Positions 5,340-49,429 of a DNA stretch of 64,000 nt are shown here, piece after piece (within the stretch, counting starts at the first letter, position 1; each line of letters opens with the position of its first letter). Source of the DNA: an uncultured delta proteobacterium. Its GTDB lineage: Bacteria > Desulfobacterota > Zymogenia > Zymogenales > Zymogenaceae. The position numbers and the translations under genes are program-made. The stretch lies in the NCBI GenBank assembly GCA_963792965.1, contig CAWBYW010000011.1, forward strand, positions 1 to 64,000, given 5' to 3'. Below the pieces are notes generated by a model, which had not been told where the DNA came from, ran no database searches, and was given only the letters and a program-made list of their open reading frames with translations.

Positions 5340-5422
5340 GAATTAAGGGGACACCATACTTAATTAACAGACTTTCTGCTTAGCTGTAGAAATAGTAATT
5401 AAGTATGGTGTCCCCTTAATTC
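5340..5422. repeat. Perfect 27-bp inverted repeat (GGGGACACCATACTTAATT REP-like family)
   Basis: GAATTAAGGGGACACCATACTTAATTA (5340-5366) and its exact reverse complement (5396-5422), 29-nt spacer. Confidence 0.9.
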
Positions 5423-8400
5423 GTCAATATACTCGACGGGGTAATCCGAGAGTTTCCGTATCGCATCCAGGACCGAGACCTTTTCGATATCCGAGACGGA
5501 GCGCAAGACTTCCTTTTTTAGGAACGGACACCGCAGCTTAAGAAGCTCGACCGGCAGACTGTAGACCGCGCCGTTGCCCGGGCCCGGCATTCCGTTTCGG
5601 TTCAGGTAGAGACTTTCCGGTATATAACAACCCGGCGCAACGTGATGTCTGCCGAGATAATCGTTCAGCCGCACTACCAAGTCTGTTTCCGCGGACGGCC
5701 CGGCGTCGGCTGTACGGATATCTTCCCAGAATTGACCGAACGCCGATGACATGACGACGGACTTCCCCAATACCAGAAAATAGCTCTGCAGACGAGGCGG
5801 CGCTGTCGCGCCGTCAGGAAACGCCGTTACTCCCCAGAACTCGGAGTCTTTCATTTTATCGAACATTTTCTCGAGCGGAAAGATCGGCCCGTAGCAGCTG
5901 TTGTCGGCCAGAATGACCTCATCATAGTTCGCCAGTTTTTCAAGCCCGTATCCATTGATACCGTCGCGCCACTCCCCGAAGCTTGCACCCGAATTCTGCC
6001 TCACTATTATCTTACTCACGAAGCCGGCTATTTTTTCCCGCTCGTGAACGGGAAGGTCACGGCTCGACACGAATACGATGTCGTCGCACATCTCCGCCAT
6101 CTTCTTGATGTAGTAGGCGTCGCACTCTCGAATTACATTGTCTCTTTCACGATGGGCGAAGAAGAGCATTCTCTTTCTGTTTGGGACGTGAGCCTTGCGT
6201 CCGCCTTTTCCCGGCAGAGCCACCAGCGGCTTGTAGTTATTAATCCCGGCTATATATACCCATATTCGCTCCAAGACGTGGCCGAGCGCATAGTTTACCT
6301 GTCCGTGCTCCTTTTCGAAATCACGGTAGCCCAATCCGTGTTTGATCAACGGCAGGAATGCTTTCGTCCGTATCCAGAACATATTGCCCGCAGGAAAGAG
6401 GGGCCACTCGGGAAGCTTTCCCCTGTATCCGAGCTCATTTACGAGAGACTGACACCGTGCCTTGTTACCGACCCATCCGAACGAAACGCCCAGCAGGGGA
6501 AAATCCGGCGGGAAGACAATCCCTATCTCGGGCCTGTCAAGAAAGCACTGAAGGATGGATCGTACTAACTCCCGCGAGCCCAGGAGGTTATCCAGGAGAT
6601 ATCTTCTCCATAAATCACCCCACTGGATCAGAGACTTTTTCGTGTGTATGTGGCATATATAGTCGTAATTTGTCAGAAATTCCCTGCACCCCACGAGGAA
6701 CGGCCCGATATCTCTTCCCCTGTTGGGAGTTATTATTATTTCGGTCCTTTGGGCGCAGCATTTGTCCGAGAAGAGTCCAGCGATCCGCTTCCTTTTTTCT
6801 TCTGTATCCGTTGTTATGAAACAGTCAAACTCACCGGGAATGTTGTTGATGTAGGACATGAACTCTTCGGCAAGGTCCGCGTGGAAGAGGTGCGCATGAA
6901 CCATGACCCCGGGCGCGTCCTTTTTCGACCTCCCGAGGGGCGGCAGCGCCTCGAATTGATCGTGCAGCGGCATATCAAACAGGGCCCGGGACGTGGTGTT
7001 TATGTTTGCGTAGCCATATTTCCTGTCGGGCTCGAGGTAGATGCCTTCGGCCCATTCGTTCCAGGCGTTGATGAAGATGAGGCGCTCGTCCTGGTGAAAG
7101 TATTTCCTCGTGTAGTCGATGATATGAATCAACCATCGATAGTAGTGTTCGAGCGAATAGCCATGCCAGACGGAGAAGCCGTTTTCACGCCGGGGGGAAT
7201 TGTCCCATCCGAGCATCGCCGTCCGAAAGATCGGTTTGTCGGGGCCGTCGGCAAAGGTGTTGCCCGCCACAACCTCGTTGACCATACTCTTGTAGTCTGG
7301 ACAGGCTCAGCGTATCGATTGCGGCCCAGAGGCAGCCGATCATAGACCGGTGTCGTGGGACCGATCAGTTGCGGGGGTAATTCCACCTCCCTGTCGGCAA
7401 TGCCGCGCACGTCTCTCTCAAAGGCCTCCCTGTAAGAGGTCCTCACCGAAACAACACAGATCTCGCCGAGCCCGTTGTCCCTGCACCATTGTCTCCACCG
7501 CTCGATCGTCTCTTTCGGCTCCGGAAGGTCATAGAGCTTGAAGATGAGGATGACGGGCCTGCCGTCTGCCTTGATATATCTCGGGTCGGTCAGGTATCTG
7601 CTCAGGTCCGAGATCAACGCTATGTCCCCCCCCTCGTCGTATTCCTGCCGCATGAGGACGCTCTCGTCCAACCCATCCCACGCCCGGGTCCAGTTATGGT
7701 TGGCCCAGCTGACGCAGTAGTTGATATCAATCTCCTTGTGCTCCAGCAGGAGATCGAGGGGTTTTTCCAGGAGACGCCTGCCGGAAAACCAGTAATAATG
7801 AAAGCAGAAGCCGTGGATTCCGTGCTCGCGCGCCAGCCGCGCCTGCTTCTTTATGACGTTGACGTCGCTCAGATCATAGTATCCGAAATCCGGGTGCGGC
7901 TCGCGCGGTTGGTACTGCCCCCTGAATCGTGGGGTCGTCTTGCGGGTATTGTGCCACTCGGTAAAGCCCTCGCCCCACCAGGCGTCGTTTTCGGGTATTC
8001 GGTGATATTGGGGAAGGTAGAACGCGATCGCCTTGAGATCCGTCTCATGACCGGAGAAGTCCTCGTTCGGCTGGTATTCGGACAGGTACGGCGGGACGGT
8101 ATCCTCACTAATCGTCCGGTCGTCCTCCACAACCGGCACGCTTACCTGATCGGGCGGCTTGGGTGCTGTTGCCGACCGGTATGCCTCGAGGAAGAGCCTG
8201 AGAGGGATCCGGGCCTTCTGGGCCAGCCTCCAGGCTTTCGTGCCGGTAATAACCTCGATATCACCCTTGAGGCGGGCGATTTCCCCACCCTGGTCGTCCA
8301 GTTGAGCCCGCAGACCCTCCACCTCTCCCGCGAGGCGAAGGGTTTCCCTGTCGCGGTCGGAGAGCTGGGCCCGCAGGCCCTCCACTTCTGCCGTGAGGCG

Positions 8401-9219
8401 GGCAACCTTGCTTGCGCGATCGAACAACTGAGCCCGCAGCCCCGCGGCATCTTCGGTCGCCAGGCCGGGTTCGCTTGCGAGGTCGTCCCGCTCGCGTCGG
8501 GCCGACAGCTCCCTGCCCAACATAGAAAAGATGCCTTCGTAGAAGGGCGACCGGTTGAATGCCGTAACACAGTCCAGGAAGCCTTGACTCACACTCTTTC
8601 CGATGGCCGCCACCCCCAGGCCGTAGCCGTGCCTGAATTCAAACGAGGGATAGCTGCCCGATATCTCTTCCCACAGCCTCCAGACGCCGAAGTCGCGGTC
8701 GTGCACCTGTGTATCGTGTAACAGCATCACTCCCTTTTCACTCATTTTCGGCAGCCAGCTTTCGAAATCGTGCTTAACGGCATCGTAGGTGTGCAGTCCG
8801 TCGATATGCAGCAGGTCGATCGTCCCGTCGGAAAAATGGCCGAGCGCCTCGTCGAACGTCATCCGCAACAGAGAAGAGAAATCTCCATATCCTTCTCGTT
8901 GATACGCCTCCAGGTCCTTAAAGACCGATTCGTCGTAGAAGAAGGCCTGCTCGTCCCCTTTCCAGGTATCAACCCCGCAGCATTTCGTATCAATTTGGAG
9001 CGCCGACACGGCCTGACAGAACGCATTGTATGAGTTGCCCGAGTGAACACCGAGCTCCACTAAAAGGCCGGGTCTTAAAATCTCAATGAGGAAGAAGGCA
9101 AAGGGGATATGCTCCACCCAGGCATATGGTGCTACAATTCTCTTTGGCTCCAACAAGATGCTTTTGAATTTACCGATATCGATAGACAATGTGTTGGCCT
9201 TTCCTTCGTGAGGTTTCAT
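5399..9219 (-). CDS. Multidomain polysaccharide biosynthesis protein: class I SAM methyltransferase + coiled coil + WbsX/GH99-like + two RgpF-like (rhamnan synthesis F) domains; frameshift near 7300
   Basis: VELGVHSGNS and LLHIDGLHTY (MTase); IAFYLPQYH..ENDAWWG, CVSWANHNW and INAWNEWAEG (WbsX-like, split across the two ORFs); PNRGRDIGP, HIHTKKS, FPAGNMFW and NSCYGPIFP (RgpF-like). Confidence 0.85.
8254..8442 (-). repeat. Three 63-nt (21-aa) tandem coding repeats forming a coiled coil
   Basis: GLRAQLFDRASKVARLTAEVE / GLRAQLSDRDRETLRLAGEVE / GLRAQLDDQGGEIARLKGDIE. Confidence 0.9.
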
Positions 9220-17326: not shown

Positions 17327-19246
17327 TTATCCTGTGGAGCGCTCCCGGAGCTTTCGTACCTCGCCGACCCGGATGGTTACCTTCTGGTCATCAAAATATT
17401 CGAGGAGAGGGATCGTATACTTCCGGGAGGCGTTGGTGATGTCCTTGAACTGCTGGGTGGTTAGCTCGCCCGTCTGTCTGAGGTGGGAGGTGAGCCGCTC
17501 CTTGAGGTCGGCGATGACGCGCGTCCCGAAGTAGAGATTATCCTTCACCCGAACGATCCGGCCCTCACGCGCGGCCACGCCGAGGAGCTTCTTTATCTCC
17601 GGCTCCGGGGCGCCCAGCTGTGCTGCCAGCTCCGTTGTTGTCGGTGGGGTGAGTCCGCCGCCGACGACGGCGCGCTGCGCCCGGCCGACCAACTCCTCAT
17701 CCTTTTTGACCAGGTGCACCTCGTGACCGAAGAGCGCCACCCGATCGCCCGTAAGCGTCACCTTCTTTCCGGCGACGAGGTCCGCAAGGAGCCTCACGAA
17801 GAGCCTGCCGTCCACGCCCCAGGGGAGCGAGCCTGAGAGCTGTTCCTTGTTGATTCCTTCCTCGGTGGGGTTTTTCTCGTGATATTCGGCTACGGCGCGC
17901 GGCGCCGCCTCAAGGAGGCGGGCATAAGCCGCCGCATCGAGCCAGCGCGCCTTCTCCTTATCGACGAGGACCGCGGCGTTTGCCGACGCGAGGTTTGAAA
18001 GGATCGGAATGGTGGAGTCCGGCGATATTCCCATCCGTTTTGCGAGGTCGTCGACCGTCACGCCCGCATAGCCCGTGTCCTTCAGGAAGACGTGAGCTCG
18101 CTCCTCGGGACTTCCGAGGGCAAGCGTCGAGATGTCCTCGATGATCTCGTCCTTGAATCTCTTATGTTTGCGGGGGACTGCGTTGAGCACCTCGCCGCCC
18201 CCGATGGTGATGACGGGAGAGAGTAGCCGGACGACGAAACGGTCACCGGGCAGTGCCACCACCGGCTCCGAGAGCCGAATCTGGACGAATACCTCCCGGC
18301 CGGGCTGGGCCTCTTCGTCGTCAAGCAGCACGATGTTACCGACGATCTCGGCGGTGCCGAGGTAGAACTTCACCTGCTGCCGGTTCTTGAGATTTTTCGT
18401 GTTGTCGGCAAGGTAGAGGAGGCGGGCGTCGATCATATATGAGGGCTCGATCGAGCCGGGAGACACGAGGACATCGCCCCGGGCGATCTTGTCTGTATCG
18501 ATCCCCGAGAGGTTGACGGCCGTCCGTGTGCCCGCGGTCGCCTCACTTTCGGCATTTCCGTGCACCTGGATTCCCCTCACGCGGCCCCCCAGACCTTTGG
18601 GCATAACGGCCACGTCCTCCCCCACGCGCACTCCCCCGGAGGTGAGGGTGCCGGTGACGACGGTGCCGAATCCCTTTATCGTGAAGACCCGGTCGATCGG
18701 GAGCCGAAAAATGCCCGACGACCGTTTCCCCTGGATCGATCCTGCTATAGTGTCGAGGGCCGCCACGAGCTCCTCGATGCCGTGGCCGGTCACCGACGAG
18801 ACCGCGATGATCGGGCAGCCCTCGAGGAAGGTCCCCTTTACGAAATCCTGTACTTCTTCGTGGACAAGCGTGACCATGTCGGGCTCGACCATGTCGATCT
18901 TCGTGATGACGACCAGTCCCTTCTGTATCCCGAGGAGCGAGAGGATGTTCACGTGCTCCGTCGTCTGGGGCATGATCCCTTCGTCGGCGGCGACGACGAG
19001 GGCCACCAGATCGATCCCGCCCGCCCCCGCCACCATGTGCCGGATGAACTTCTCGTGGCCGGGGACGTCCACGATCCCGAGGCGGGCCCCGGACGGCAGA
19101 TCGAGGTGGGCAAAGCCGAGCTCTATCGTGATCCCACGCTCTTTTTCCTCTTTGAGACGGTCGGTATCGATGCCGGTGAGGGCCTTAATAAGGGCGGTCT
19201 TGCCGTGATCGATATGCCCGGCGGTCCCAAGGATGAGTCTCTTCAT
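17327..19246 (-). CDS. selB: Selenocysteine-specific elongation factor SelB
   Basis: GTAGHIDHGKT, DRLKEEKERGITIELGF, DVPGHEKF, C-terminal SRKYTIPLLEYFD. Confidence 0.98.
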   Translation of the reverse strand: MKRLILGTAGHIDHGKTALIKALTGIDTDRLKEEKERGITIELGFAHLDLPSGARLGIVDVPGHEKFIRHMVAGAGGIDLVALVVAADEGIMPQTTEHVNILSLLGIQKGLVVITKIDMVEPDMVTLVHEEVQDFVKGTFLEGCPIIAVSSVTGHGIEELVAALDTIAGSIQGKRSSGIFRLPIDRVFTIKGFGTVVTGTLTSGGVRVGEDVAVMPKGLGGRVRGIQVHGNAESEATAGTRTAVNLSGIDTDKIARGDVLVSPGSIEPSYMIDARLLYLADNTKNLKNRQQVKFYLGTAEIVGNIVLLDDEEAQPGREVFVQIRLSEPVVALPGDRFVVRLLSPVITIGGGEVLNAVPRKHKRFKDEIIEDISTLALGSPEERAHVFLKDTGYAGVTVDDLAKRMGISPDSTIPILSNLASANAAVLVDKEKARWLDAAAYARLLEAAPRAVAEYHEKNPTEEGINKEQLSGSLPWGVDGRLFVRLLADLVAGKKVTLTGDRVALFGHEVHLVKKDEELVGRAQRAVVGGGLTPPTTTELAAQLGAPEPEIKKLLGVAAREGRIVRVKDNLYFGTRVIADLKERLTSHLRQTGELTTQQFKDITNASRKYTIPLLEYFDDQKVTIRVGEVRKLRERSTG

Positions 19247-19284
19247 CGCTCTCTTCCGTAACATTCTTTATGGGAGCTTCCCGA

Positions 19285-19851
19285 TCAACCCTTCGTCTTC
19301 AGCTCGCCGCCGATACTCCATGCCTTTCCCACGAAATCGCCGACGGAGTAGTAGCGATTCAGCCCCATGCTGAAGATGAGCGGGTTTACCTTCTCAATGT
19401 CGGGAAGGCCTTCTGTGAGACAGGCGTCGTCACAGAAGACCGAGACGATCTCGCCGATGAACGCGACATCAACCGCAAACTCGATCGTCTGGATCAGGCT
19501 CACCTCAAGGTTGAGGGGACACTCCTGAATCAACGGGGCGGTCCCGAGCTTGCCGAAAAATGTGGTAAAGAGCGCGGATTTATCGACGCTCTTGCCCGAG
19601 ACGAGCCCGCAATAGTCGGTCTTGACCACAAGCGGCGCGGAGGGGATGTTGACGGAAAAGGACTTGGTATCACGTATCCCCATCGTCGTATGGTGGTTTT
19701 TGTTGAGGGCAACGGATACCACGGGGGGACGGGCGTTCATCATCCCGACATAGGCCGCAACCATGTAGTTGGGTTTGCCGTCCGCCATCGCCCCCACGAG
19801 CGTGGTGGGCATGGGAAACAGATAGGTGCCCGGTTTGATCTCATGTTTCAT
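19285..19851 (-). CDS. Flavin reductase-like (flavoredoxin) FMN-binding protein
   Basis: PMPTTLVG..GKPN, FSVNIPS, DYCGLVSG, APLIQECPLNLE. Confidence 0.9.
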   Translation of the reverse strand: MKHEIKPGTYLFPMPTTLVGAMADGKPNYMVAAYVGMMNARPPVVSVALNKNHHTTMGIRDTKSFSVNIPSAPLVVKTDYCGLVSGKSVDKSALFTTFFGKLGTAPLIQECPLNLEVSLIQTIEFAVDVAFIGEIVSVFCDDACLTEGLPDIEKVNPLIFSMGLNRYYSVGDFVGKAWSIGGELKTKG

Positions 19852-20357
19852 GGGTTCCTCGGGGATAGGGATTATTGGACCGCGGCGCGTCGGCCGGTGC
19901 ACGCATTCGGCATTGTAGCGGATTTCAGGCCGTCATGCAAGACAATCCGGGGTCGGGCCTCAAGGCCGTCTGTGGCCCGCGCGTAAACCGGGTGGCCGCG
20001 CCCGAAAGAGCGTGGAGGCCGGTATTTGATTTGAGCCGGCTCACTTTTTCTGAATTTGATCGCAATAAAACGTGAGCGGTGCTGTTTAATAGAGTGATGG
20101 GTCGCAACGTATCGCACTCGTGGGAGAAATGATGGCAAGAAAGACCGGAGGATTTCGACCGTTGCAGGGAGGGCACCCGCGTGGTGAACAATGGCCGTGG
20201 AAGCGTGATGCAGCTTTACTATTAGAAGAATATAATCGTCCGTCAATGTCCCGGTAAGGTTAGTCGATTATCATGCACGCACAACAATGGGGGAGGACCG
20301 AGGGGAAGCGTTTCGATTATTTTTACGGGAGGGGTCGGTTGCATCGGTGGCTGGAAA

Positions 20358-33237: not shown

Positions 33238-33876
33238 ATGAAAGACAGCACAAAGAATAGGATCCTCGACGTCTCGATGCGCCTGTTCGGCGCTCACGGT
33301 CTGGACAGGACGCGGGTCGAGGATATCGTCGAGCAGGCCCGGATATCAAGGGCAACGTTCTACAACTATTTCTGCAGTAAGGACGAGGTTTTTTTCTGTC
33401 TGATAGAAACCGAGCTTAATACGATACAGAGGAAAATCGATACGGCGCTGGAACAGGAGGAGGATCCCTTCGCGAAGATAAAGATCTATTTTTTTCAAAT
33501 GATCCTCGGCTCTCGGGAGATCATGCGGCTGTTGAACATCCGGCATGACGAAATCGAGTCATTGCCCCAAGTGCCCAGGAAACTGATGGAATCGGGTCTC
33601 AAAAGCGGTCTGAAAACGGTTAGCGAGATCCTCGATTACGGAGTAAGGCGCGGCGCCTTTACCGTATCGAACCCGGAGCTTACCGCCCACGTCATACTGA
33701 GCGCCCTGGATATATTTGTCAACCCTTTCAAGCTGGGTTCAATCGAATTGGAAACGGCCGAAGAACAGCTCGATCGAGTTCTCGACGTGATCCTTTTCGG
33801 CTTCGCCAAGCGCCGCGGCGCCTCGGCGGCCGCCGAGAGAAATGGAGACAGTCCCACCTTACTAAAACTAAACTGA
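33238..33876 (+). CDS. TetR/AcrR family regulator
   Basis: ILDVSMRLF..TRVEDIVEQARISRATFYNYF. Confidence 0.95.
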   Translation: MKDSTKNRILDVSMRLFGAHGLDRTRVEDIVEQARISRATFYNYFCSKDEVFFCLIETELNTIQRKIDTALEQEEDPFAKIKIYFFQMILGSREIMRLLNIRHDEIESLPQVPRKLMESGLKSGLKTVSEILDYGVRRGAFTVSNPELTAHVILSALDIFVNPFKLGSIELETAEEQLDRVLDVILFGFAKRRGASAAAERNGDSPTLLKLN

Positions 33877-34003
33877 TAATGCGGCTGCGATAAAGTGATC
33901 TGCTGGATCTCGGATGATCCCCAGGCACTCATGCATCGGTATGCTTTACGAAATACTCAATGTGATGCTCTCAGATGAGCGGCGAATTCAAAAGGGATAG
34001 GAT

Positions 34004-35134
34004 ATGAAGAAACTGCATGATGTCATTGGACGATTAAAGGATGTTCCGTGGCCCTTCACCAAACGGCAGACCATCCTCGGCGCATGTGTCGTGGTGGTGG
34101 TGGTTTTTTTCGGGATACGGATATACGGTTACATCGTTAAGGAGCCGACCCTCTCGCTGGAGGAGATCTACAAGATCGAGGGCGTCCCCGTGGAAGTGGC
34201 CGACGTTACCCGCGGGCAGATGGAGATCTGGAAGACTTTTCCCGGGGATCTTAAAGGGATCCGCCAGGCGGAGCTTACCTCCGATCTGAGCACCCGGGTA
34301 GTCAAACTCCTGCATAGCGTGGGTGATCAGGTCAAAAAGGGCGATATCATCATGAAGATCGATCCCAACGATGCATCGAGCATGACCGTCAAGTTCAATG
34401 AGGATCAACAACTTTATCTGAAATCCATTCGGGATTACGAGCGGATGAAGATCCTCTATGAGGCGGGGGCCGTCTCCAAACAGGACTACGAGAACGCCCG
34501 GACCGCGTACGATATCGCCCAGTCTAACTACGGAAAGTCCAAGGAATCGGTGGAGATCCCCGCTCCGTTCGACGGAACGCTGACAAACATTAACGTCAAC
34601 GAGGGCGACCGCATCTCCTCGGGGATGATACTCGGCACCGTAGCCGTCACCGACCAGATGCGGGTGGACCTCAGCCTCTCGGAGGAAAAGGCGAAAATGA
34701 TCGCCAAGGATCAACCTGCAAAGATCGTCGTACCCTTACCGTCCGGTCGGGACGTCACCGTGTCGGGCGTGGTGGATTTCGTATCGCTCTCGGCCGACCC
34801 CATCACCGGTCTCTTCGGCGTACGCGTCACGTTCGAAAATCCCGATGGGATTCTGGTGCCCGGCACCGTCACCCGGGTGCAGATCCTCGTTTTCTCGTCC
34901 CCGGACGCCCTGACTGTCCCCACCTCCGCCCTGTCGACGGAGGGCGATAACCGTTTCGTCTGGATCGTGGATAAAAAGAAGATCGCGACAAAGCGAATGA
35001 TTACCGTGGGCTGGCAGGGAGACGAATCCGTTGAGATTATCGCCGGCGTCAACGTGGGCGACCGGGTCGTCACCAAGGGACAGAACAAATTGACCGACAA
35101 GCCACTCGTCAAGATCCTCAATCCGGAGAAATAA
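34004..35134 (+). CDS. RND periplasmic adaptor (MFP)
   Basis: TM anchor, VGDQVKKGD, helical hairpin, IPAPFDG, GDRVVTKG. Confidence 0.95.
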   Translation: MKKLHDVIGRLKDVPWPFTKRQTILGACVVVVVVFFGIRIYGYIVKEPTLSLEEIYKIEGVPVEVADVTRGQMEIWKTFPGDLKGIRQAELTSDLSTRVVKLLHSVGDQVKKGDIIMKIDPNDASSMTVKFNEDQQLYLKSIRDYERMKILYEAGAVSKQDYENARTAYDIAQSNYGKSKESVEIPAPFDGTLTNINVNEGDRISSGMILGTVAVTDQMRVDLSLSEEKAKMIAKDQPAKIVVPLPSGRDVTVSGVVDFVSLSADPITGLFGVRVTFENPDGILVPGTVTRVQILVFSSPDALTVPTSALSTEGDNRFVWIVDKKKIATKRMITVGWQGDESVEIIAGVNVGDRVVTKGQNKLTDKPLVKILNPEK

Positions 35135-35135
35135 T

Positions 35136-38100
35136 ATGAAGCTCGTCGAGACCGCCGTCAGGCGGCCGGTCCTCACCGTCATGATGGTCACGGTCCTTAT
35201 TGTCCTGGGGCTCTTTTCCTTCAGGCGCCTGACCATAGATCTCTTCCCTAAGGTGGATATCCCCGTGGTCAGCATTACCACCATCTATAAGGGCGCCGGC
35301 CCCAAGGAGGTGGAGAGCCAGGTGACCGAGAAGATCGAAGATGAGGTTTCCACCGTCAGCAACGTCAAGACCGTCAATTCCACCTCGATGGAAAACGCCT
35401 CGATCATCACCGTCGAGTTCAACGTGGGCACCAACATCGATTTCGCGTCCATCGAGATCAAGGATAAGGTGGACTCCATCCTCAATACACTACCGGAGGA
35501 TGTCGAACGGCCCACGGTCGTCAAGTTCGACCTCAACGCCCTGCCGATCATGAACCTTTCGGTTTCATCCGACCGCCCCCTCAACGAGGTCTATGACATC
35601 GCGGATAACCAGATCAGGGACCGGCTCAACCAGATCAACGGCCTGGCCTCCGTCGAGATCGTCGGGGGACTCCAGCGTGAGATCCAGGTGAACGTCAGCA
35701 AGGAGGCGCTTCTCCGATACGGGCTCACCATCAACGATCTGGCGGCCGTTATCGGGGCCGAGAACAAAAATGTACCTGTGGGGCGCCTGACGCGGCCCGA
35801 GGGAGAATACACGCTGCGTGTTCAGGGCGAGTATACAACCATAGCCGACATTGCGGCCACTACCGTCGCCACGCCAAAGGGGGGGACGGTCACCATCGGG
35901 GATATCGCGACCGTTAAGGACTCCTTCAAGGAGCGGCGGGACTCGGCCACATACAACGGAAGGCCGTCGGTGGGCGTCATCATCTACAAGCGCTCCGACG
36001 CCAACACGGTTCAGGTGGCCACGGACGTATATCTCGCCATCAGGGACCTCAAGAAGATGATCCCCGAGGGTTATGAGATAGGCCTTGCCCAGGACAACTC
36101 GACTTTCATCACACGGTCGGTCAACGACGTGTTAATGAACATCGTCCTCGGCATTCTTATCACCGCGTTTTTCCTCTATGTCTTCCTGCACAATTTGCGT
36201 TTCACCTTCATCGTATCCATGACGATGCCCACGTGCATCATCTCCTCGTTTATCCTCATCTACGCCGCGGGTTTTACCCTCAACGTAATCAGCCTCATGG
36301 CGCTGGGTATCTCCGTCGGGATGCTTGTCAACGACTCGCTGCTGATACTGGAGAATATCGATCGCCATATCTCAATGGGCGAGCCTCCGGCGATGGCCGC
36401 CAACAACGGCGCCTCGGAGATCGCCCTTGCGGTATCGGCAACCACCATGACGCACATGGTGGTCTTCACCCCCATCGCGTTCATGAGCGGCATTATCGGC
36501 CAGTTCTTCAAGCAGTTCGGGATCACCGTGGTCTTCGTCACGGCCATATCGCTCTTGTGCGCCTTTACCTTGACGCCGATGCTTGCCTCAAAGCTCCTCG
36601 GACAGAGGAAGAAGACCGGGCGAGGGGAGGCTGGCGCGGATGAAATACGTCCATCGCGGACGGGAGATCATCAGGGCATTTTTTAGTAGATGGGACAAGC
36701 TTTACGAGAATATAAAATCGCGCTATGGGACCGGCCTCCTCTGGTGCCTCAACCACCCGAAACAGACGGTACTGACGGCGCTGGGCCTCTTTTTACTCTC
36801 CTTCGTCCTCCTCTTTCTGGTGGGCGGCGAGTTCACGCCTTACACCGATCAGGGCTACATGGTCGTGGAGGCAACGATGCCGTCCCAGACGACGCTTGAG
36901 GAGACCGAGCGCGTCATGACGGAGATAGCCGCAATCGTAAAGAAACACCCCGAGGTAGAGAGCACCTTCATCTCAATCGGGGGAACAAACATGGGCATCA
37001 ACGAAGGTCAGCTGATCGTCAAGCTCGTCCCCCTTTCCGACAGGGATCTGACAAGCAGGGAGTTCGTGAACGTCATCAGGCCGGAGCTCGCGTCCATCCC
37101 GTCTGCGGATATTACTCTCTCCGAGAACACCTCCATATCCGGACGGGCCGAAGCCGGCGTCACCGTCGATGTGACCGGCCCCGACCTGGACACTGTGAGA
37201 AAGCTCTCAAATGAAATGTTGACGTTCATGTCCGCCAACAAAGGGCTGACGGACGTGAAGACCTCAGAAAAGGATCCGAAGCCCGAGATCCGTTTCATCC
37301 CGGATCGGTACCGGATATCCTCTTTCGGCATCAACACCTCCGCGGTCTATTCCGCCCTCAGGACGTCGTTTGAGGGGGACGTGCCCTCGGTCTTCAGGGA
37401 CAAAGGCAAGGAATACGACATCCGGGTGAGGCTTGCGGAGGCGGACCGCACCGACGTCGATTCCTTTTCGGGCGTGATGATCGCCACTCCGAAGGGAGCG
37501 GTCCCCGTCAGCCGCCTGGGGGACGTGGCGAAAACGACCGGGGAATCGGAGATACTGCGCAAGAACCGCAACAAGCTCATCACGGTATCGGCAAACATCG
37601 GCTCGGGGACGCTCGGCGACTATGAGGCAAAGATCAAATCAAAGAGGGCCGACATGGACGTCCCTCAGGGGTACACCGTGGCGCTCGCCGGCGAGAGCGA
37701 GCGCAAGGCCGAGGCCTTCGGGGACCTCTTCGGGGCGCTCTTCTTGTCGATTATCCTCGTCTATATCCTCCTGGCGGCCATGCTCGAATCCTACGTCCAC
37801 CCGTTCACGATCATGCTCTCGCTCCCACTGGGTCTCATCGGCGTGGCCACGGCGCTGTTCATCGGGAGACAGACCATCAACATACTGTCGATGATGGCCG
37901 TCATCATGCTCGTCGGCGTCGTCGTCAATAACTCCATCCTGATACTCGAAAACGCCGGCCGGCTACGGGACGAGGGGATGCCCCGCCGGAAGGCCCTCGT
38001 TGAGTCCTGTAACCTCAAGTTCCGGCCGCTTGCCATGGCAAACCTCGCCATTGCGTGTTCCCTCATCCCGCAGCTCCTCGGCAACGCCGAGACCGGATTC

Positions 38101-38265
38101 CAGAAAGCGATGGGGACGGCCACGATCGGCGGAATCCTGACAGCGGGGGTCTTCACCCTCTTCCTGATCCCGGTTATTTACGAGTACCTCGACCGATTCA
38201 CCAAGAAGGGACGGCTGGAGTCGGAGAAATCACGACCGGCGCGACGGCCGGGAGACCGAAACTGA
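35136..38265 (+). CDS. RND efflux permease, frameshift near 36620
   Basis: AVRRPV, DLFPKVDIP..GAGPKEVE; second half AMLESYVHPFTIM in the adjacent frame. Confidence 0.93.
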
Positions 38266-38752
38266 TCGATAGAGGGTCCGGACCAGGTGACTCCTATTTT
38301 ATAGGAGATAAAAAAGAGGGGGGCAAACAGCCCTCCCTCTCTGCATCTCCTGCGTGTCTTTCCGTAAGGCGCCTTCTGCGTTCCCCCTCGTGCGGCCGTC
38401 GAAAGACCTCTCCGCGAGACGATACCGATACGACGGACTATTGATGTAGCGTCGGGCGTGCGTACTCGGAAGGGGGTGGGCGAGGGAAGGGGATAGAGGG
38501 AGTTTTTTCCCGGTCTGATGATATTTGTCCGAAGGTTCCTATATCCCACGCGGTTTAATATAGAACACGCACGTTATTCGATGGGGAGAGCGCACCTCCT
38601 TTTCGCCTTCAGGATTGGGTTCAATAAAGGTCGCTATAATCCGATAATATTGTCTATCGGTATATACTTTCGGATAAAACTATAGTAAAATAGTTAGAGT
38701 TTATTAGGCGCCGCAGGTCGGCGGACGATAGTACGGACAAGGAGTTAGAGTC

Positions 38753-39677
38753 GTGGTAAATAAGAATAGACGTTTCGCGCTTATCATTCTTATCCCGGTT
38801 GCGCTCGCACTGATGGTTCTGATCGGGATCAGGTTCGGTGGTTCCAAATTGTTTGCAAAAGAAGGAGTGAACGAGACCACCGCAAGTCCCGTGTCGGCGG
38901 TTGTGGTGAACATCGGCACCATATCCGACACCCTTTCCTACACCGGAGACCTACACGCCGAGGAGGAAGCCCTCGTCTACAGCATGGTTAACGGAAGAGT
39001 CGTGAAGTATAACCATAAGGATGGCGATAAGGTATCCAAAGGCTCCCCACTGGTGACGCTGGAGAGGGAAGAAACCTGGGACGGATTCAAGCCGGTTATC
39101 GTCGAGTCGCCTATCTCGGGGACGGTCGCCACAAACTATCTGACTACCGGCGAACGGGCGACACCCGAGACGCCGCTGGCGCTCGTTGTCGGAGGAGGCG
39201 CAATCACAGTAAACATCAAGGTGCCCGACAAAGAGGTTGCCCGGATCGATAAAGGCATGAAGGCCGAGCTGACTGTTGCTACGGCGCCGGGCGTCGTGTA
39301 TGAGGGCACGGTAGAACGGGTGAGCCCGGTGATCGACCGGACGACCCGAACTTCGCAGGTGGAGATACGCATCAGCTGATGCGGACGGATCGCTCCGCGC
39401 GGGGATGTTCGGGAACGTCACCATCATCCTGGAAGAGAAGAGTGATGCGCTCCTGATTCCCGCGGGGTCCGTGATTTTCGAAAAGGAGGGAAATGAAGAC
39501 CCGTATTGCTTCGTCATCGAAAAGAATGTTGCGAAAAAAAGGGCCCTTACCGTTGGAATCACTCAGAAAGATGTGATAGAGGTAGTCTCGGGCCTGACAG
39601 CGGGAGATAAGGTGGCAACGCTCGGAAAAGAGAACCTGAGCGACGGCACGGCAGTTAGAATCGTCGAATCCTTTTAG
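38753..39677 (+). CDS. RND periplasmic adaptor lacking the alpha-hairpin; frameshift at about 39377
   Basis: GDKVSKGSPL..VESPISG separated by only about 15 aa; continues DADGSLRAGMFG after a one-base shift. Confidence 0.85.
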
Positions 39678-39688
39678 GGGTCTCTTTA

Positions 39689-42600
39689 ATGGCGCTGCTG
39701 AGATATTTCGTCAAGAACCACGTGCTCGTCAATATGATCACGCTGGGCGTGCTGCTGCTCGGCGTGGTCCTCACCTCCAGGCTCAACCGTGAGGTGATGC
39801 CCTCGATTTCCTACGGGACGATCAGCATTACGACGGCCTATCCGGGGGCGTCTCCGGAAGAGGTGGAGGGGGTCGTCACCACGCCCTTCGAGGAGGCGCT
39901 CGCCGGCACCCAGGGGATCAAGACCCTCGAGTCGCAATCAAGGGAGGGGGAATCCGATATAACCATCACGGCAGAGAGCGGCATCGAGGGACCGGCGCTC
40001 GACCAGCTGCTCAACGATGTAAAGAATAAGGTGGGCACCGTCCAGGATATTCCCACGGACGTCCAGCAGCCACAATACGAAAAGTTCTCCCCGAACTTCT
40101 CGGTCGTCACGGTGACGCTGTCCGGTGACGCTCCCGAGGAGACGCTCAGGGCCGCTTCCGAGCGGATCAAGACGGAAATAGAGGCAATCGACGGTATTGA
40201 CTCGGTCGAGCGGGACGGCTACCGCGACCGGGAGGTGTGGGTATCCGTGGACCCACGGCGGCTTGAAGCGGCCAATCTCTCGATGTCCGATGTTGTCACA
40301 GCCATCAGGAACCGGAACCTTAACATCCCCGGCGGCACCATCGACCTGGGGAGGAAAGAGCTGTTGGTCCGCACGATCGGCGAGGTCGAAGGTCCCGCGG
40401 ACGTGGGAAACGTCATCGTGCGGTCGCTCGGCAGCGGCGTCGACCAGGGTGGGCGACATCGCCGATGTGACGGAGACCTATAAGAAATGGGACGTGATCG
40501 GCCGCATCAACGGGAAACCCTCCATCAACCTTCAGGCCAACAAGACGGCCAGCGGCGATATAATCAAGATCGTCGGCGAGATAAGGAATCTGGTTCAGGA
40601 AGAGAAGTCCATCCTTCCCCCCGGGGTTAAGATCGACCTGGTCCGTGATAATTCTGTTGTGGTCCAGAAGAGGCAGAGGAAACTCTTCACGGACGGGATA
40701 GTGGGACTGATCCTCGTGCTGGTCATCATGTATCTGATTCTCGACGCGAAGATTGCGCTCTGGTCGGCCGCCTCGATCCCCTTTTCCTTCCTGTTGTCCC
40801 TTATTATCATGTACTACATGGGGATCACGCTCAACCTCCTGTCGATGTTCGGGCTCATCCTTGTCCTCGGGATGGTCGTCGACCAGGCCATCGTCGTGGC
40901 CGAGAACTCGTTCCGATACCGGGAGATGGGACTATCCATGGAAGAGTCCGTCCTCACGGGCACCCATGAGGTCATCATGCCGGTGGCCGCGGCCGTTACG
41001 GCCCACGTCGCATCGCTCTTACCGTTGATGTTCACCTCGGGCATCATGGGGAAATTTCTGAAGGTCATCCCCGAGGTGGGGATCATCTGCTTCCTTGCCT
41101 CCTGGTTCCAGGCCTTCTTCATCCTTCCCTCGAACCTGAACCAGTTCGTAAGGATCTCCGTGCACCAAAAGAAGCAGGACTTCCGCTCCTGGTTCAACAA
41201 GGTCAGGGATTTTTACGGCGAGCTTCTCACCTATGCGCTGAGGCGGCGCTACCTGATCTTTATCGGCCTTAATGTCGTGGCAGTCACGACGATAATTTTC
41301 GGCTTCCTGACCATGGAGTTCGTCTGGATGGGGATGGGGAAATCAACAGATGAGCAGTTCAACATCATGATAAGCAACCCGGTCAACAGCAACCTGAACG
41401 AGACCGACCGGGTGATGAAGCAGATGGAGAAAGTCGTGATGGACCTTCCCGCGGGTGAGGTGGCCTCCGTGGTGACCACCGTCGGAAGGTCCCGGGGTGA
41501 AAACGGCACCTACCTCGGCCGGATTTTAGTGGAGCTGACCGAGAAGGGATACAAGAAGGTAGGTACCGACCAAATTATCGATTCGCTCAGGAAGAAGTTC
41601 GGGCTTATCCCCGGCCCGACGTCGATCACACTGCAAAAGCAGACGGGAGGCCCCCCGACCGGTTCCCCGGTTTCCGTGGAAATCTCGGGAGAAGACTTTG
41701 GAATTCTGGACAAACTCGCGCATCAGGTCATGAATGAGTTGAAGACGGTAAGGGGGGTCACCGATATCGAAAGTAACTACCTCAAGGGAAAAGACGAATA
41801 CAGGATCGACATTGACGAGTATAAGGCCAGGACGCTCGGGCTCGATGTCGCAAAGGTGTCGACCGAGATCCGCGACGCCTTTTCCGGCGGCGACGGTGGA
41901 AACATCAGGCGTGGTGATGAGAAGATCAACATCGTCGTTAAGTATAATGACCTTTTCCAGAACCCGAACTACCTGATGAACTTCTCCGTCCCCAACTCAA
42001 CCGGGGATCGAATCCCGATCAGGAGCCTTGCCGACGTCGTCTACGGCAGCGGGATATTCAAGGTATATCACTCCGACCGAAAACGGACGATCACCGTCAC
42101 CGCCGACATCATCAGCGATGAAAATACGTCCGCCGGTGTCACTAAGGAGCTGATGAAGAAGTTCGGGACCGCAAGCACGGTGTATCCCGGGTACTTCTTC
42201 AGTTATACCGGCGAATACCAGGATACGCAGGAGTCGCTGAAATCGATGATCCAGGCGCTGTGGCTCGTGCTCGGGATCATCTACATCATCCTGGCGGTGC
42301 TGTTCCGCTCCTTCATCCAGCCCGTCATCATTATGTTCGCCATCCCCTTTGCCTTCATCGGGGTCTTCTTCGGGCTCTTCGTCATGGGCGAGCAGCTGTC
42401 GCTGTTTGCCTTCATCGGGGTGATCGCGCTTATGGGGATCGTCGTGAGCAACTCGATCCTGCTGCTTGATTTCATCAATCGCGCCAGAGCTGCGGGCAGG
42501 CCGCTGTTCGAGGCGGTCAAGGAATCGGGGATGATACGTCTGAGGCCCATACTGCTGACGAGCCTCACGATCCTGATGGGGCTTTTCCCGATGGCCTTTG

Positions 42601-42776
42601 CGATCGGCGGGCGCGAGCAGCTTCTCACGCCCATGGCGGTGTCAATGTTCTGGGGCATCCTCTTTTCAACGATGCTCACCCTCTTTGTGGTACCTTGCCT
42701 CTACGTCATCGTCGAAGACATCAAGGGACGTTACCCGAAGGTTTTCGGGCCGGGCGCTGAGCCCTCCCGCTCATGA
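39689..42776 (+). CDS. RND efflux permease, frameshift near 40445
   Basis: YPGASPEEVE, RNLNIPGG, RLRPILLT. Confidence 0.93.
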
Positions 42777-42905
42777 GTGGCGATGAGTGAAGCGACCGCC
42801 GAGGCCTTCGTGCCGGCTGTCCTTCCCTCGTATTATTCCTGCTTTCCGCGATTGCATCAACCGGGTCAATACTGTATAATCTCCAAAACTGGAGGTGGTA
42901 TCGGG

Positions 42906-43853
42906 GTGAAGACAGATGACCTGTTAGTCGAGCCGGTTTGCGATGACCTCTTTTGTCTGCGACCCGCACACTCTATGTGGCCCGCGGCCGCGGCGGTCTA
43001 CGTCGTTGTCGATTCAGACGGCTTTTCGCTCATCGATGTCGGATGCGGCGGCCCGGGGGCGATTGAGCGGTTACGAGCGGGTCTAAAAAGTCTGGGGCTT
43101 GAGCTTGCGTCTCTTAAGACCGTGGTCCTCTCCCATGCCCATCCCGACCACATGGGCGCAGCCGAGATGCTCTTGAATGAATGCCGGCCCACCGTTCTTA
43201 TCCACCGTGACGATTTTGATCATGCACGAAACCCCGATGGGCTTATTGGCACCTTCGATATCGATCTTGCACGGCGGATGTACGGCAAGGCGGAGGGCCC
43301 GGTGAGCGACCTTTTTTCTTTCTTCGACGGATCGGGGTGATCGATGTCTCGTGCCGACCCGGGCGGGTCGCTCTCAGAAGGGGATGTCGTTACACTCGGC
43401 CACTACCGTTTTGAGGTGATACATACCCCCGGCCATTCGCCGGGCCACATCTCGCTCTTCGATCGAAAGACAAAAATCCTCTTCGGAGGTGACCTCGTGG
43501 GAGATATCGTGGCATGGTACACCCCGGCGTCGGGCGGGGTAACGGGCTATCTTAAGAGCCTCGAGAAGATTCAGGCATGCAAGGCGAGCCTCATCCTCCC
43601 CTCTCACGGAATGATCGTCCACGATCCGATCAAAAAAATCGACCAGGTAAGAGAAAAGCTCCTTTCCAGGGAGAGGAAGATGCTGAGCATCTTAAGTGAG
43701 GGGAGGGTTTCCTTTACAGGGCTGGTGAGGCGAATGTTTCCCAACGAGATGGTCCGATTTTTTCCCGGTACCGGCATCACGGAGAGTCACGCCCAAAAAC
43801 TGGAGGGAGAGGGTAAGGTGAGGCGCATCGGCGCAGAAATCGAGATCATATGA
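42906..43853 (+). CDS. MBL-fold metallo-hydrolase with an in-frame UGA (codon 145), candidate selenoprotein
   Basis: SHAHPDHMG before the TGA (43338-43340); HTPGHSPGH, GGD and PSHG after it, in the same frame; GGAGGT RBS before GTG 42906. Confidence 0.85.
43342..43389 (+). promoter_or_regulatory. Candidate bacterial SECIS element
   Basis: Upper stem CGACCC/GGGTCG with GGGC loop 20 nt after the UGA; lower 9-bp stem 43342-43350/43381-43389. Confidence 0.6.
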
Positions 43854-48163: not shown

Positions 48164-48279
48164 CGGGCACGACATACCACGCCCTGCAACGCTCTCAATG
48201 ATCTCGTCTCTTCATACCTCCGCGAAAACCCCCCCACAAATCGCTTGACGAAACGCCCGATACGGTGGAATATATAATC

Positions 48280-49429
48280 ATGGACCGTCAACAGACAGAA
48301 GCCTGGGAGCTCAAGTACCTCAAGCCCTACGCCTCCTTTTCCGCGAAAAGCCACGGGAGGAAGCACAAGGAGCCGGAGGACGAGATCCGCACGGCCTTCC
48401 AGCGGGACCGGGACCGGATCATCCACTCCAGCGCCTTCCGCCGCCTCGAGTACAAGACCCAGGTTTTCGTCTATCACGAGGGGGACTACTTCCGCACCCG
48501 CCTCACCCACACCATCGAGGTCGCCCAGATCGCCCGGACGATCGCCCGGTCGCTCGGAGTCAACGAGGACCTAACTGAGGCGGTGGCGCTTGCCCACGAC
48601 ATGGGCCACCCCCCCTTCGGCCACAGCGGAGAAAAGACCCTCGACGAGCTCCTCAAGGACGACGGCGGCTTCAACCATAATCTCCAGAGCCTCAAGATCG
48701 TCGAAGAGCTCGAAAAGAAATACCCGAACTTCCCCGGGCTTAACCTCACCTACGAAGTCAGGGAAGGGCTGGCAAAACACAGCACGGAATACGACGTGCC
48801 GGGGGTGGGGGAATTCGCGGAGCATCCGGGCGCATCGCTCGAGGCCCAGGTGGTCGATATCGCCGACGAGATCGCCTACAACAGCCACGACATCGACGAC
48901 GGCCTTGCCTCGGGGATGATCGACGAGGCAGACATCGCGTCGCGTTCGCCTCTGGCACGAGACCTTCGACGCGGTCGTGAAAAGCTGGCCCGCCGAGGAC
49001 CAGAAGGTCTGGCGCCTTGTCTCCGTTTCGCGGCTCATCGGACGGCAGGTCAAGGACGTGATCGCCGAGGTGGAAAAGAACATCAAGACACGCAGGATAC
49101 ACACCGTCGAAGACGTGCGCGGGGCACCTGAGAGGATCGCGTCGTTCAGCGACGGGATGGGAGATCTCAACGAGGAGCTCAAAAGGTTCCTCATGAAGCG
49201 GCTCTACCGTCACTACCGGGTGGTGAGGATGAGTGGCAAGGCGGAGCGAATCGTAAAGGACCTCTTCAGCACGTACCTCTCCATCCCCGAGCAGCTTCCG
49301 CCGGCGATATATGAGGAGTATAACAGGACCAAGAGCAAGCGGGTGGTCACGGACTACATCGCCCAGATGACCGACAAGTTCGCCATCGACGAGCACGGTA
49401 AGCTCTTCTCGCCGTACGAAAAGGTGTGA
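48280..49429 (+). CDS. dgt: Deoxyguanosinetriphosphate triphosphohydrolase-like HD protein, frameshift near 48940
   Basis: [38 protein letters not shown]; C-terminal DYIAQMTD in the shifted frame. Confidence 0.92.

Follow-up and report, generated by a model that had tools for sequence, protein, structure and literature searches.

A gene for an MBL-fold protein in an uncultured delta proteobacterium contains a TGA codon within its reading frame, which raises the question of whether the gene is broken, split in two, or read through with selenocysteine (Sec), as a preliminary description of the locus had proposed. The gene lies in the 64,000-nt stretch, part of a 158,943-nt contig, that was analysed here (the window). 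A single frame runs from a GTG at 42906 through the in-frame TGA (codon 145) to a terminal TGA at 43851-43853, and its translation yields a read-through product of 315 amino acids, with …FFDGSG-TGA-SMSRADP… around codon 145 and …AEIEII at the C-terminus. The table 11 ORF list gives it as two ORFs in the same frame (42777-43340 and 43344-43853), and translation of 42906-43853 bears out the earlier observation that both belong to one frame across the TGA. The GTG start at 42906 is backed by 144-aa N-terminal pieces of relatives (see below), which align to residues 1-144. The two features in question are as follows.

42906..43853, + strand: MBL-fold gene with Sec (U) proposed at codon 145 (translation; Lactamase_B; N-terminal pieces of relatives; AlphaFold2)
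43338..43340, + strand: in-frame TGA, proposed Sec145 codon, in the motif G-U-S-M (Cys column in homologues; ends of the pieces)

The read-through product belongs to the MBL-fold superfamily, with one Pfam match to Lactamase_B (1.1e-29) that covers residues 29-234, crosses the TGA and scores 104.2 bits against a cutoff of 22.7 for PF00753. As had been noted from the letters alone, the metal motifs are divided by the TGA: HAHPDH (HxHxDH, H77-H82) precedes it, and HTPGHSPGH (H173-H181, including H177 and H181), D196 and SHG (H234) follow it.

What residue do uninterrupted relatives carry at the position of the TGA? A search with the read-through protein returned 698 relatives, the best 120 of which (268-350 aa, 43-59% identity) were analysed, and all 120 of these full-length homologues, aligned with MAFFT, have Cys in the TGA column. 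This residue belongs to the motif G-C-x-M, whose G (position -1) is present in 107 of 121 rows and whose M (position +2) in 119 of 121. The Cys145 column is also invariant in two further alignments, A1 and A2, the latter of which has H77, H79, H82, H177, D196 and H234 invariant and D81 nearly so (at least 90%). At the DNA level, a scan of one genome per species, with 80 loci kept among the matches listed, contained at least six orthologous loci (L001-L005 and L007), in which the codon at this column is TGC or TGT in six of six and TGA in none among the matches listed. Six loci that align only from about residue 146-156 were considered as possible stop-containing forms and turned out to be distant MBL proteins without the insert. 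When 1.84 billion 50%-identity representatives were searched with a profile, 28 of the top 30 matches had a residue at the column, Cys in 22 cases, and Cys becomes rare below about 200 bits, indicating that it marks a subfamily rather than the whole superfamily. The nearest named MBL relatives among the matches listed are from Thermodesulfobacteriota and Deltaproteobacteria, and the G-C-x-M subfamily as a whole occurs in Thermodesulfobacteriota, Actinomycetota and some archaea. The comparison with homologues for which the preliminary description had called thus returned Cys (120 of 120 proteins, six of six loci), and not Trp, Arg or a variable residue. The same description had placed Sec145 in a variable insert; the insert does vary as a whole, but not at this residue, which is constant throughout the subfamily.

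The closest relatives share the interruption. A search limited to shorter proteins gave 67 short relatives, among which 22 N-terminal pieces end exactly at G144 (…FFDGSG) and 25 C-terminal pieces begin exactly at M147 (MS.A.P), that is, 21 and 24 besides the window's own; the former stop just before the TGA codon and the latter start two codons past it. These split pieces come from distinct 90%-identity clusters on many contigs, and 12 other N- and C-terminal pairs lie on contigs of equal listed size (e.g. 859,419, 578,874, 26,544 and 24,504 nt). They are 61-83% identical to the query, as against at most 59% for unsplit homologues (best 120 of 698), and all relatives closer than the unsplit homologues, among the matches listed, are annotated as two pieces. 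Public gene calls, including NCBI-sourced records, hold two fragments (144 or 121 aa plus 169 aa), indicating that the family has apparently not been recognised as a selenoprotein.

FastTree trees were computed for each half with all rows kept and with the root set arbitrarily on the Cys form P0100. Split forms make up a single clade in both, free of unsplit members (24 of 144 tips and a support of 0.959 for the C-terminal half; 22 of 142 tips and 0.973 for the N-terminal half), and in both trees this clade is nested among Cys forms. The residues H177, H181, D196, H234 and H295 are retained in 24 of 24 C-terminal pieces (the truncated P0171 left out), from which it follows that selection acts on the region beyond the stop, and the shared break codon within one clade rules out a read error or a private nonsense mutation. 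Judged by these sequence comparisons, the interruption dates from before the clade diversified, and purifying selection acts on the downstream half of the clade's proteins; the stop of the relatives is presumably TGA as well.

Immediately 3' of the TGA, the MFE structure contains a hairpin within the coding sequence:

43342..43389, + strand: candidate bacterial SECIS hairpin, in codons 146-162 (MFE structure)
43355..43370, + strand: upper stem and apical loop of the candidate SECIS (MFE structure)

In the MFE fold of 43338-43400, the lower stem pairs 43342-43350 with 43381-43389 (nine pairs, three of them G-U), the upper stem pairs CGACCC (43355-43360) with GGGUCG (43365-43370) through six Watson-Crick pairs, and the apical loop GGGC (43361-43364) begins 20 nt after the UGA, so that the two-part architecture given in the preliminary description was recovered in full. 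The hairpin region has an MFE of -19.0 to -19.7 kcal/mol, and the upper hairpin with one flanking base per side (43354-43371) one of -10.2 kcal/mol. The published bSECIS model asks for an apical loop of 3-9 nt, an upper stem of 4-16 bp, a G in the first two loop positions, a distance of 16-37 nt from the UGA and an MFE of at most -7.5 kcal/mol (PMC13188914). The hairpin agrees with all four published bSECIS criteria, having a 4-nt loop that starts with GG, a 6-bp stem, a distance of 20 nt and an MFE of -19.7 kcal/mol. The description of the element as SECIS-like stands in this respect, but its stability is not statistically unusual (z = +0.62, with 142 of 200 shuffles at least as stable) and hence provides no evidence by itself. 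Hairpins with at least 6 bp and a loop starting with G at 16-37 nt follow 58 of the 2067 TGA triplets in the window (2.8%). Taken alone, the fit to the bSECIS model is weak evidence. No such hairpin, even in a 4-bp version, follows the Cys codon in any of the six Cys-form loci, and since the 4-bp version has a chance rate of 27%, its absence from six loci lends only mild support. Rfam gave no match at the gathering threshold over the whole window, and a permissive scan of 43250-43500 gave four matches, all at chance level.

A-D-P-G-G-S, the peptide encoded by the upper hairpin, hardly varies within the split clade. Conservation of residues 147-156 (M-S-R-A-D-P-D/G-G-S-L) in this clade is 0.94, compared to 0.84 for the rest of the C-terminal half (rank 41 of 160 windows), and in four of four Cys subclades of similar divergence the same residues are less conserved than the rest (ranks 109-150 of 160), which lends the hairpin indirect comparative support. 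At the hairpin-coding site, DPTGT is already found in the sister Cys forms P0025-P0027; the constraint on this peptide may therefore reflect, in part, selection on the protein and not on the RNA.

The window also encodes a component of the machinery for Sec insertion:

17327..19264, - strand: selB, selenocysteine-specific elongation factor, intact (TIGR00475; Pfam; homologue coverage)

The presence of selB had been pointed out before, and the ORF is intact and above the curated cutoff (TIGR00475, 367.2 bits against 242.25). Its product has the Pfam domains GTP_EFTU, SelB beta-barrel, SelB-wing_2 and wing_3, and alignments with homologues 636-645 aa long cover 98-99% of it; the named homologues come from Deltaproteobacteria, Desulfobacteria and Syntrophobacterales and are about 50% identical. 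One SelB homologue, P0204 (72% identical), is encoded on a contig of 859,419 nt; the contig listed for the split pair P0127 and P0153 has the same size. Among the 61 window ORFs scanned there were no SelA or SelD domains, and no tRNA genes, tRNA-Sec included, were found in the 64,000 nt. A selAB(C) gene arrangement, in which selA or tRNA-Sec adjoins selB, is common; neither is adjacent to selB in the window, unlike in that arrangement. The ORF immediately upstream of selB on the same strand (19285-19902, -) is flavin-reductase-like. The window contains 34 same-frame TGA junctions, that of the MBL gene among them, and in a search for other selenoprotein genes at nine of the 34, picked by eye, no Pfam domain spanned the TGA.

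Several other genes in the window are disrupted. Directly upstream of the MBL gene and on the same strand lies a TetR-HlyD-AcrB-HlyD-AcrB efflux cluster (33238-42776, +), which includes:

35136-38265 and 39689-42776, + strand: AcrB-type RND transporter genes, each in two frames (Pfam ACR_tran)

The ACR_tran profile continues from position 497 to 499 over the split in the first AcrB gene and from 247 to 249 over that in the second, and with the AcrB gene of L001 as a guide the frame changes near 36615-36627 and near 40407-40411, respectively. That guide gene (L001:37-2751) is located directly upstream of the closest Cys-form orthologue and is 52-63% identical to the first AcrB of the window. 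The frame splits in the AcrB genes are either assembly indels or pseudogenes. A WbsX-type glycosyltransferase region (5399-9219, -) extends over two overlapping ORFs, with the profile covered from 2 to 216 by the ORF at 7129-9219 and from 268 to 349 by that at 5399-7285, which suggests another frame change. The HD-domain gene at 48265-49429 (+), with 288 aa, looks short, and its end is overlapped by an ORF of 150 aa in a different frame (48977-49429), so that there may be a further frame change here. With several frame-shifted genes in the window, either the assembly or the genome is not pristine.

Could the TGA then be one more lesion, a TGC or TGT codon that was misread or mutated in this genome only? 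The frame-disrupted genes (two AcrB-type, one WbsX-type) speak for a pseudogene or an error of sequencing or assembly, as does the single base change that separates TGY from TGA. However, the other lesions in the window are frame changes and not substitutions to stop, in line with the preliminary description, which had called most of them indels. Moreover, the same codon is the breakpoint in the 21 other N-terminal and 24 other C-terminal pieces, whose identity has fallen to 61-83% with all metal ligands kept. On the basis of these comparisons we consider such an explanation very improbable, and sequencing error and pseudogene are both effectively excluded. An even fainter chance attaches to the UGA being decoded in some other way, by an alternative code (as Trp or Gly) or by a Cys-inserting suppressor. 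Either would also yield the full-length protein, but the aligned residue is an invariant Cys and not Trp or Gly, and a dedicated SelB is encoded in the window; in addition, TGA terminates both the MBL gene (43851-43853) and the neighbouring AcrB gene (42774-42776), indicating that it is an ordinary stop codon here.

The main rival to a selenoprotein, and a serious one, is a genuinely split enzyme, in which a nonsense mutation has been fixed at the Cys codon and two polypeptides, an N-terminal half of 144 aa and a C-terminal half of 169 aa that restarts at Met147, assemble into an MBL fold without Cys145. The codons G-S-G-stop-S-M at 43326-43346 (+) read GGATCGGGGTGATCGATG and thereby provide a Shine-Dalgarno-like GGGGTGATC 6 nt before the ATG of the conserved Met147; with this ATG, at 43344, only 3 nt past the stop, a restart of the C-terminal polypeptide is mechanically possible, but the predicted hairpin has the same ATG paired within its lower stem. 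The separate calling of the two pieces in public gene sets favours a split enzyme, a stop conserved throughout the clade fits it as well as it fits Sec, and the break falls between the two halves of the beta-sandwich, a two-half construction of the fold that we take to count for it as well. Against this, two subunits would mean giving up the one residue that 120 of 120 unsplit homologues share, while all other invariants are kept, and the break is placed exactly on the Cys codon, which a single base change turns into TGA. Conservation is usually relaxed at free termini; here the flanks FFDGSG and MSRADP.GS are conserved above average. Finally, the window has both selB and, at the right distance, a SECIS-like hairpin. 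We therefore regard a split enzyme as improbable.

Taken together, the Cys column, the split clade with its metal ligands kept, the hairpin that fits the SECIS model and selB make a selenoprotein the best reading, in support of the original proposal, and we conclude that the gene at 42906-43853 very probably encodes a selenoprotein in which UGA145 is read as selenocysteine. The hairpin at 43342-43389, acting as a bacterial SECIS, would recruit SelB-GTP-Sec-tRNA(Sec) to the ribosome, and decoding of UGA145 as selenocysteine would produce one 315-aa MBL-fold enzyme with a TTHA1429/LACTB2-like C-terminal winged-helix region. Its selenol would take the place of the invariant thiol in the G-C-x-M loop, between metal motif 2 (HxHxDH) and motif 3. 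We infer from these features that insertion of Sec does take place. In its mechanism the gene would be an ordinary bacterial case of Sec-UGA with SECIS, in a family that is not catalogued as a selenoprotein.

Known bacterial selenoprotein genes (those of the fdhF type and many families from Deltaproteobacteria and Thermodesulfobacteriota) share with the window gene a UGA on a conserved Cys column, a 3' hairpin with a loop starting with G at 16-37 nt, a SelB encoded in the genome and a Sec clade nested among Cys orthologues. They differ in fold: the window protein is an MBL-fold protein with the proposed motif G-U-S-M and without a UxxC or CxxU redox motif. Most known selenoproteins resemble thiol-oxidoreductases, or their Sec binds Mo, W or Ni. 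The impression in the preliminary description that MBL hydrolases are not among the classical selenoproteins agrees with the published catalogues, as no MBL-fold (PF00753) family is present in Table 1 of the 2022 catalogue with 87 families (PMC9312934) or in Table 1 of the 2026 catalogue with 119 families or subfamilies (PMC13188914), and the main text of each contains nothing relevant. No mention of an MBL-type enzyme or a hydrolase was found in PMC1976440 either. A search of the literature for an MBL-fold bacterial selenoprotein, which covered sources other than the supplements of selenoproteome surveys, led only to SelTryp. This Kinetoplastida selenoprotein is described as having an MBL-fold domain, two rhodanese domains and a C-terminal CxxU Sec tail outside the MBL domain (PMC1557815). 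SelTryp resembles what is proposed for the window protein in being a selenoprotein that contains an MBL-fold domain, but it is eukaryotic and combines rhodanese domains with a C-terminal CxxU, whereas the window protein is bacterial and its Sec would be located inside the MBL domain. Identity with SelTryp was rejected, since Pfam detects no rhodanese domain in the window protein and the proposed Sec is internal, in G-U-S-M.

If the selenoprotein reading is correct, a Sec-containing MBL-fold metallo-hydrolase would add a family missing from both catalogues (87 and 119 families), and Cys/Sec145 would be singled out as functionally central in a widespread MBL subfamily, providing a direct biochemical handle. 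Recognition of the Sec codon would also correct the two-fragment annotations and improve selenoproteome counts for lineages related to sulfate reducers.

The fold and the surroundings of residue 145 were assessed with an AlphaFold2 model built on 121 sequences (mean pLDDT 95.4, pTM 0.93), in which residue 145 directly follows helix 136-143 and is ahead of strand 154-156. The top Foldseek match in the PDB is TTHA1429 (2zo4; E 3.6e-23, TM 0.81/0.85), and the top matches all have the MBL fold; further structural matches are Burkholderia MBL-domain proteins, human LACTB2, a Bacillus paraoxonase (8zxg) and PqsE. A profile search of PDB sequences also ranked 2zo4 best (2.6e-28), with a match over the full length that included the C-terminal helical/winged-helix part. 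TTHA1429 and LACTB2-like MBL proteins have the ligand set HxHxDH, H, D, H in common with the window protein, but TTHA1429 is only about 21% identical to it and has Glu where the subfamily has Cys or Sec. In the PDB profile alignment this column is Cys in 8zxg, for which no publication was found. The function of TTHA1429 is described as unknown in PMC6267482.

None of the 25 NCBIfam models shown reaches its cutoff (best, 69.6 bits against 525). Assignment to subclass B3 or B1 of the metallo-beta-lactamases was rejected (bla_subclass_B3, 57.1 bits against 240; bla_subclass_B1, 28.0 against 200), and with scores so far below the cutoffs nothing marks the protein as a resistance enzyme. Glyoxalase II membership was rejected as well (GSH_gloB, 42.9 bits against a cutoff of 200.8), although glyoxalase II and PqsE-type MBL thioesterases have the same set of ligand motifs as the window protein and are among its PDB matches. 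By analogy with the alpha3-beta7 loop of B3 enzymes, the loop with residue 145 should, we assume, flank the active-site groove. Residue 145 is probably part of the lining of the dinuclear metal site and involved in catalysis or in the binding of metal or substrate. We tentatively suggest, as a possibility that we hold to be rather less than even, that Sec serves as an extra ligand of the dinuclear metal centre or as a nucleophile on a thiol-, persulfide- or thioester-type substrate, in what would be the first prokaryotic MBL-fold selenoenzyme. In that case the chemistry of the G-C-x-M subfamily would depend on Cys and differ from that of classical MBL hydrolases, whose mechanism relies purely on metal hydroxide. 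At L002-L005 and L007, the more distant of the Cys-form loci, neighbouring genes encode an ADP-forming CoA ligase and a 3-hydroxyacyl-CoA dehydrogenase/enoyl-CoA hydratase, which belong to acyl-CoA metabolism, and from these neighbours a thioester-type hydrolase might be ventured as a weak guess. Two archaeal loci of this group have an FMN reductase gene as a neighbour.
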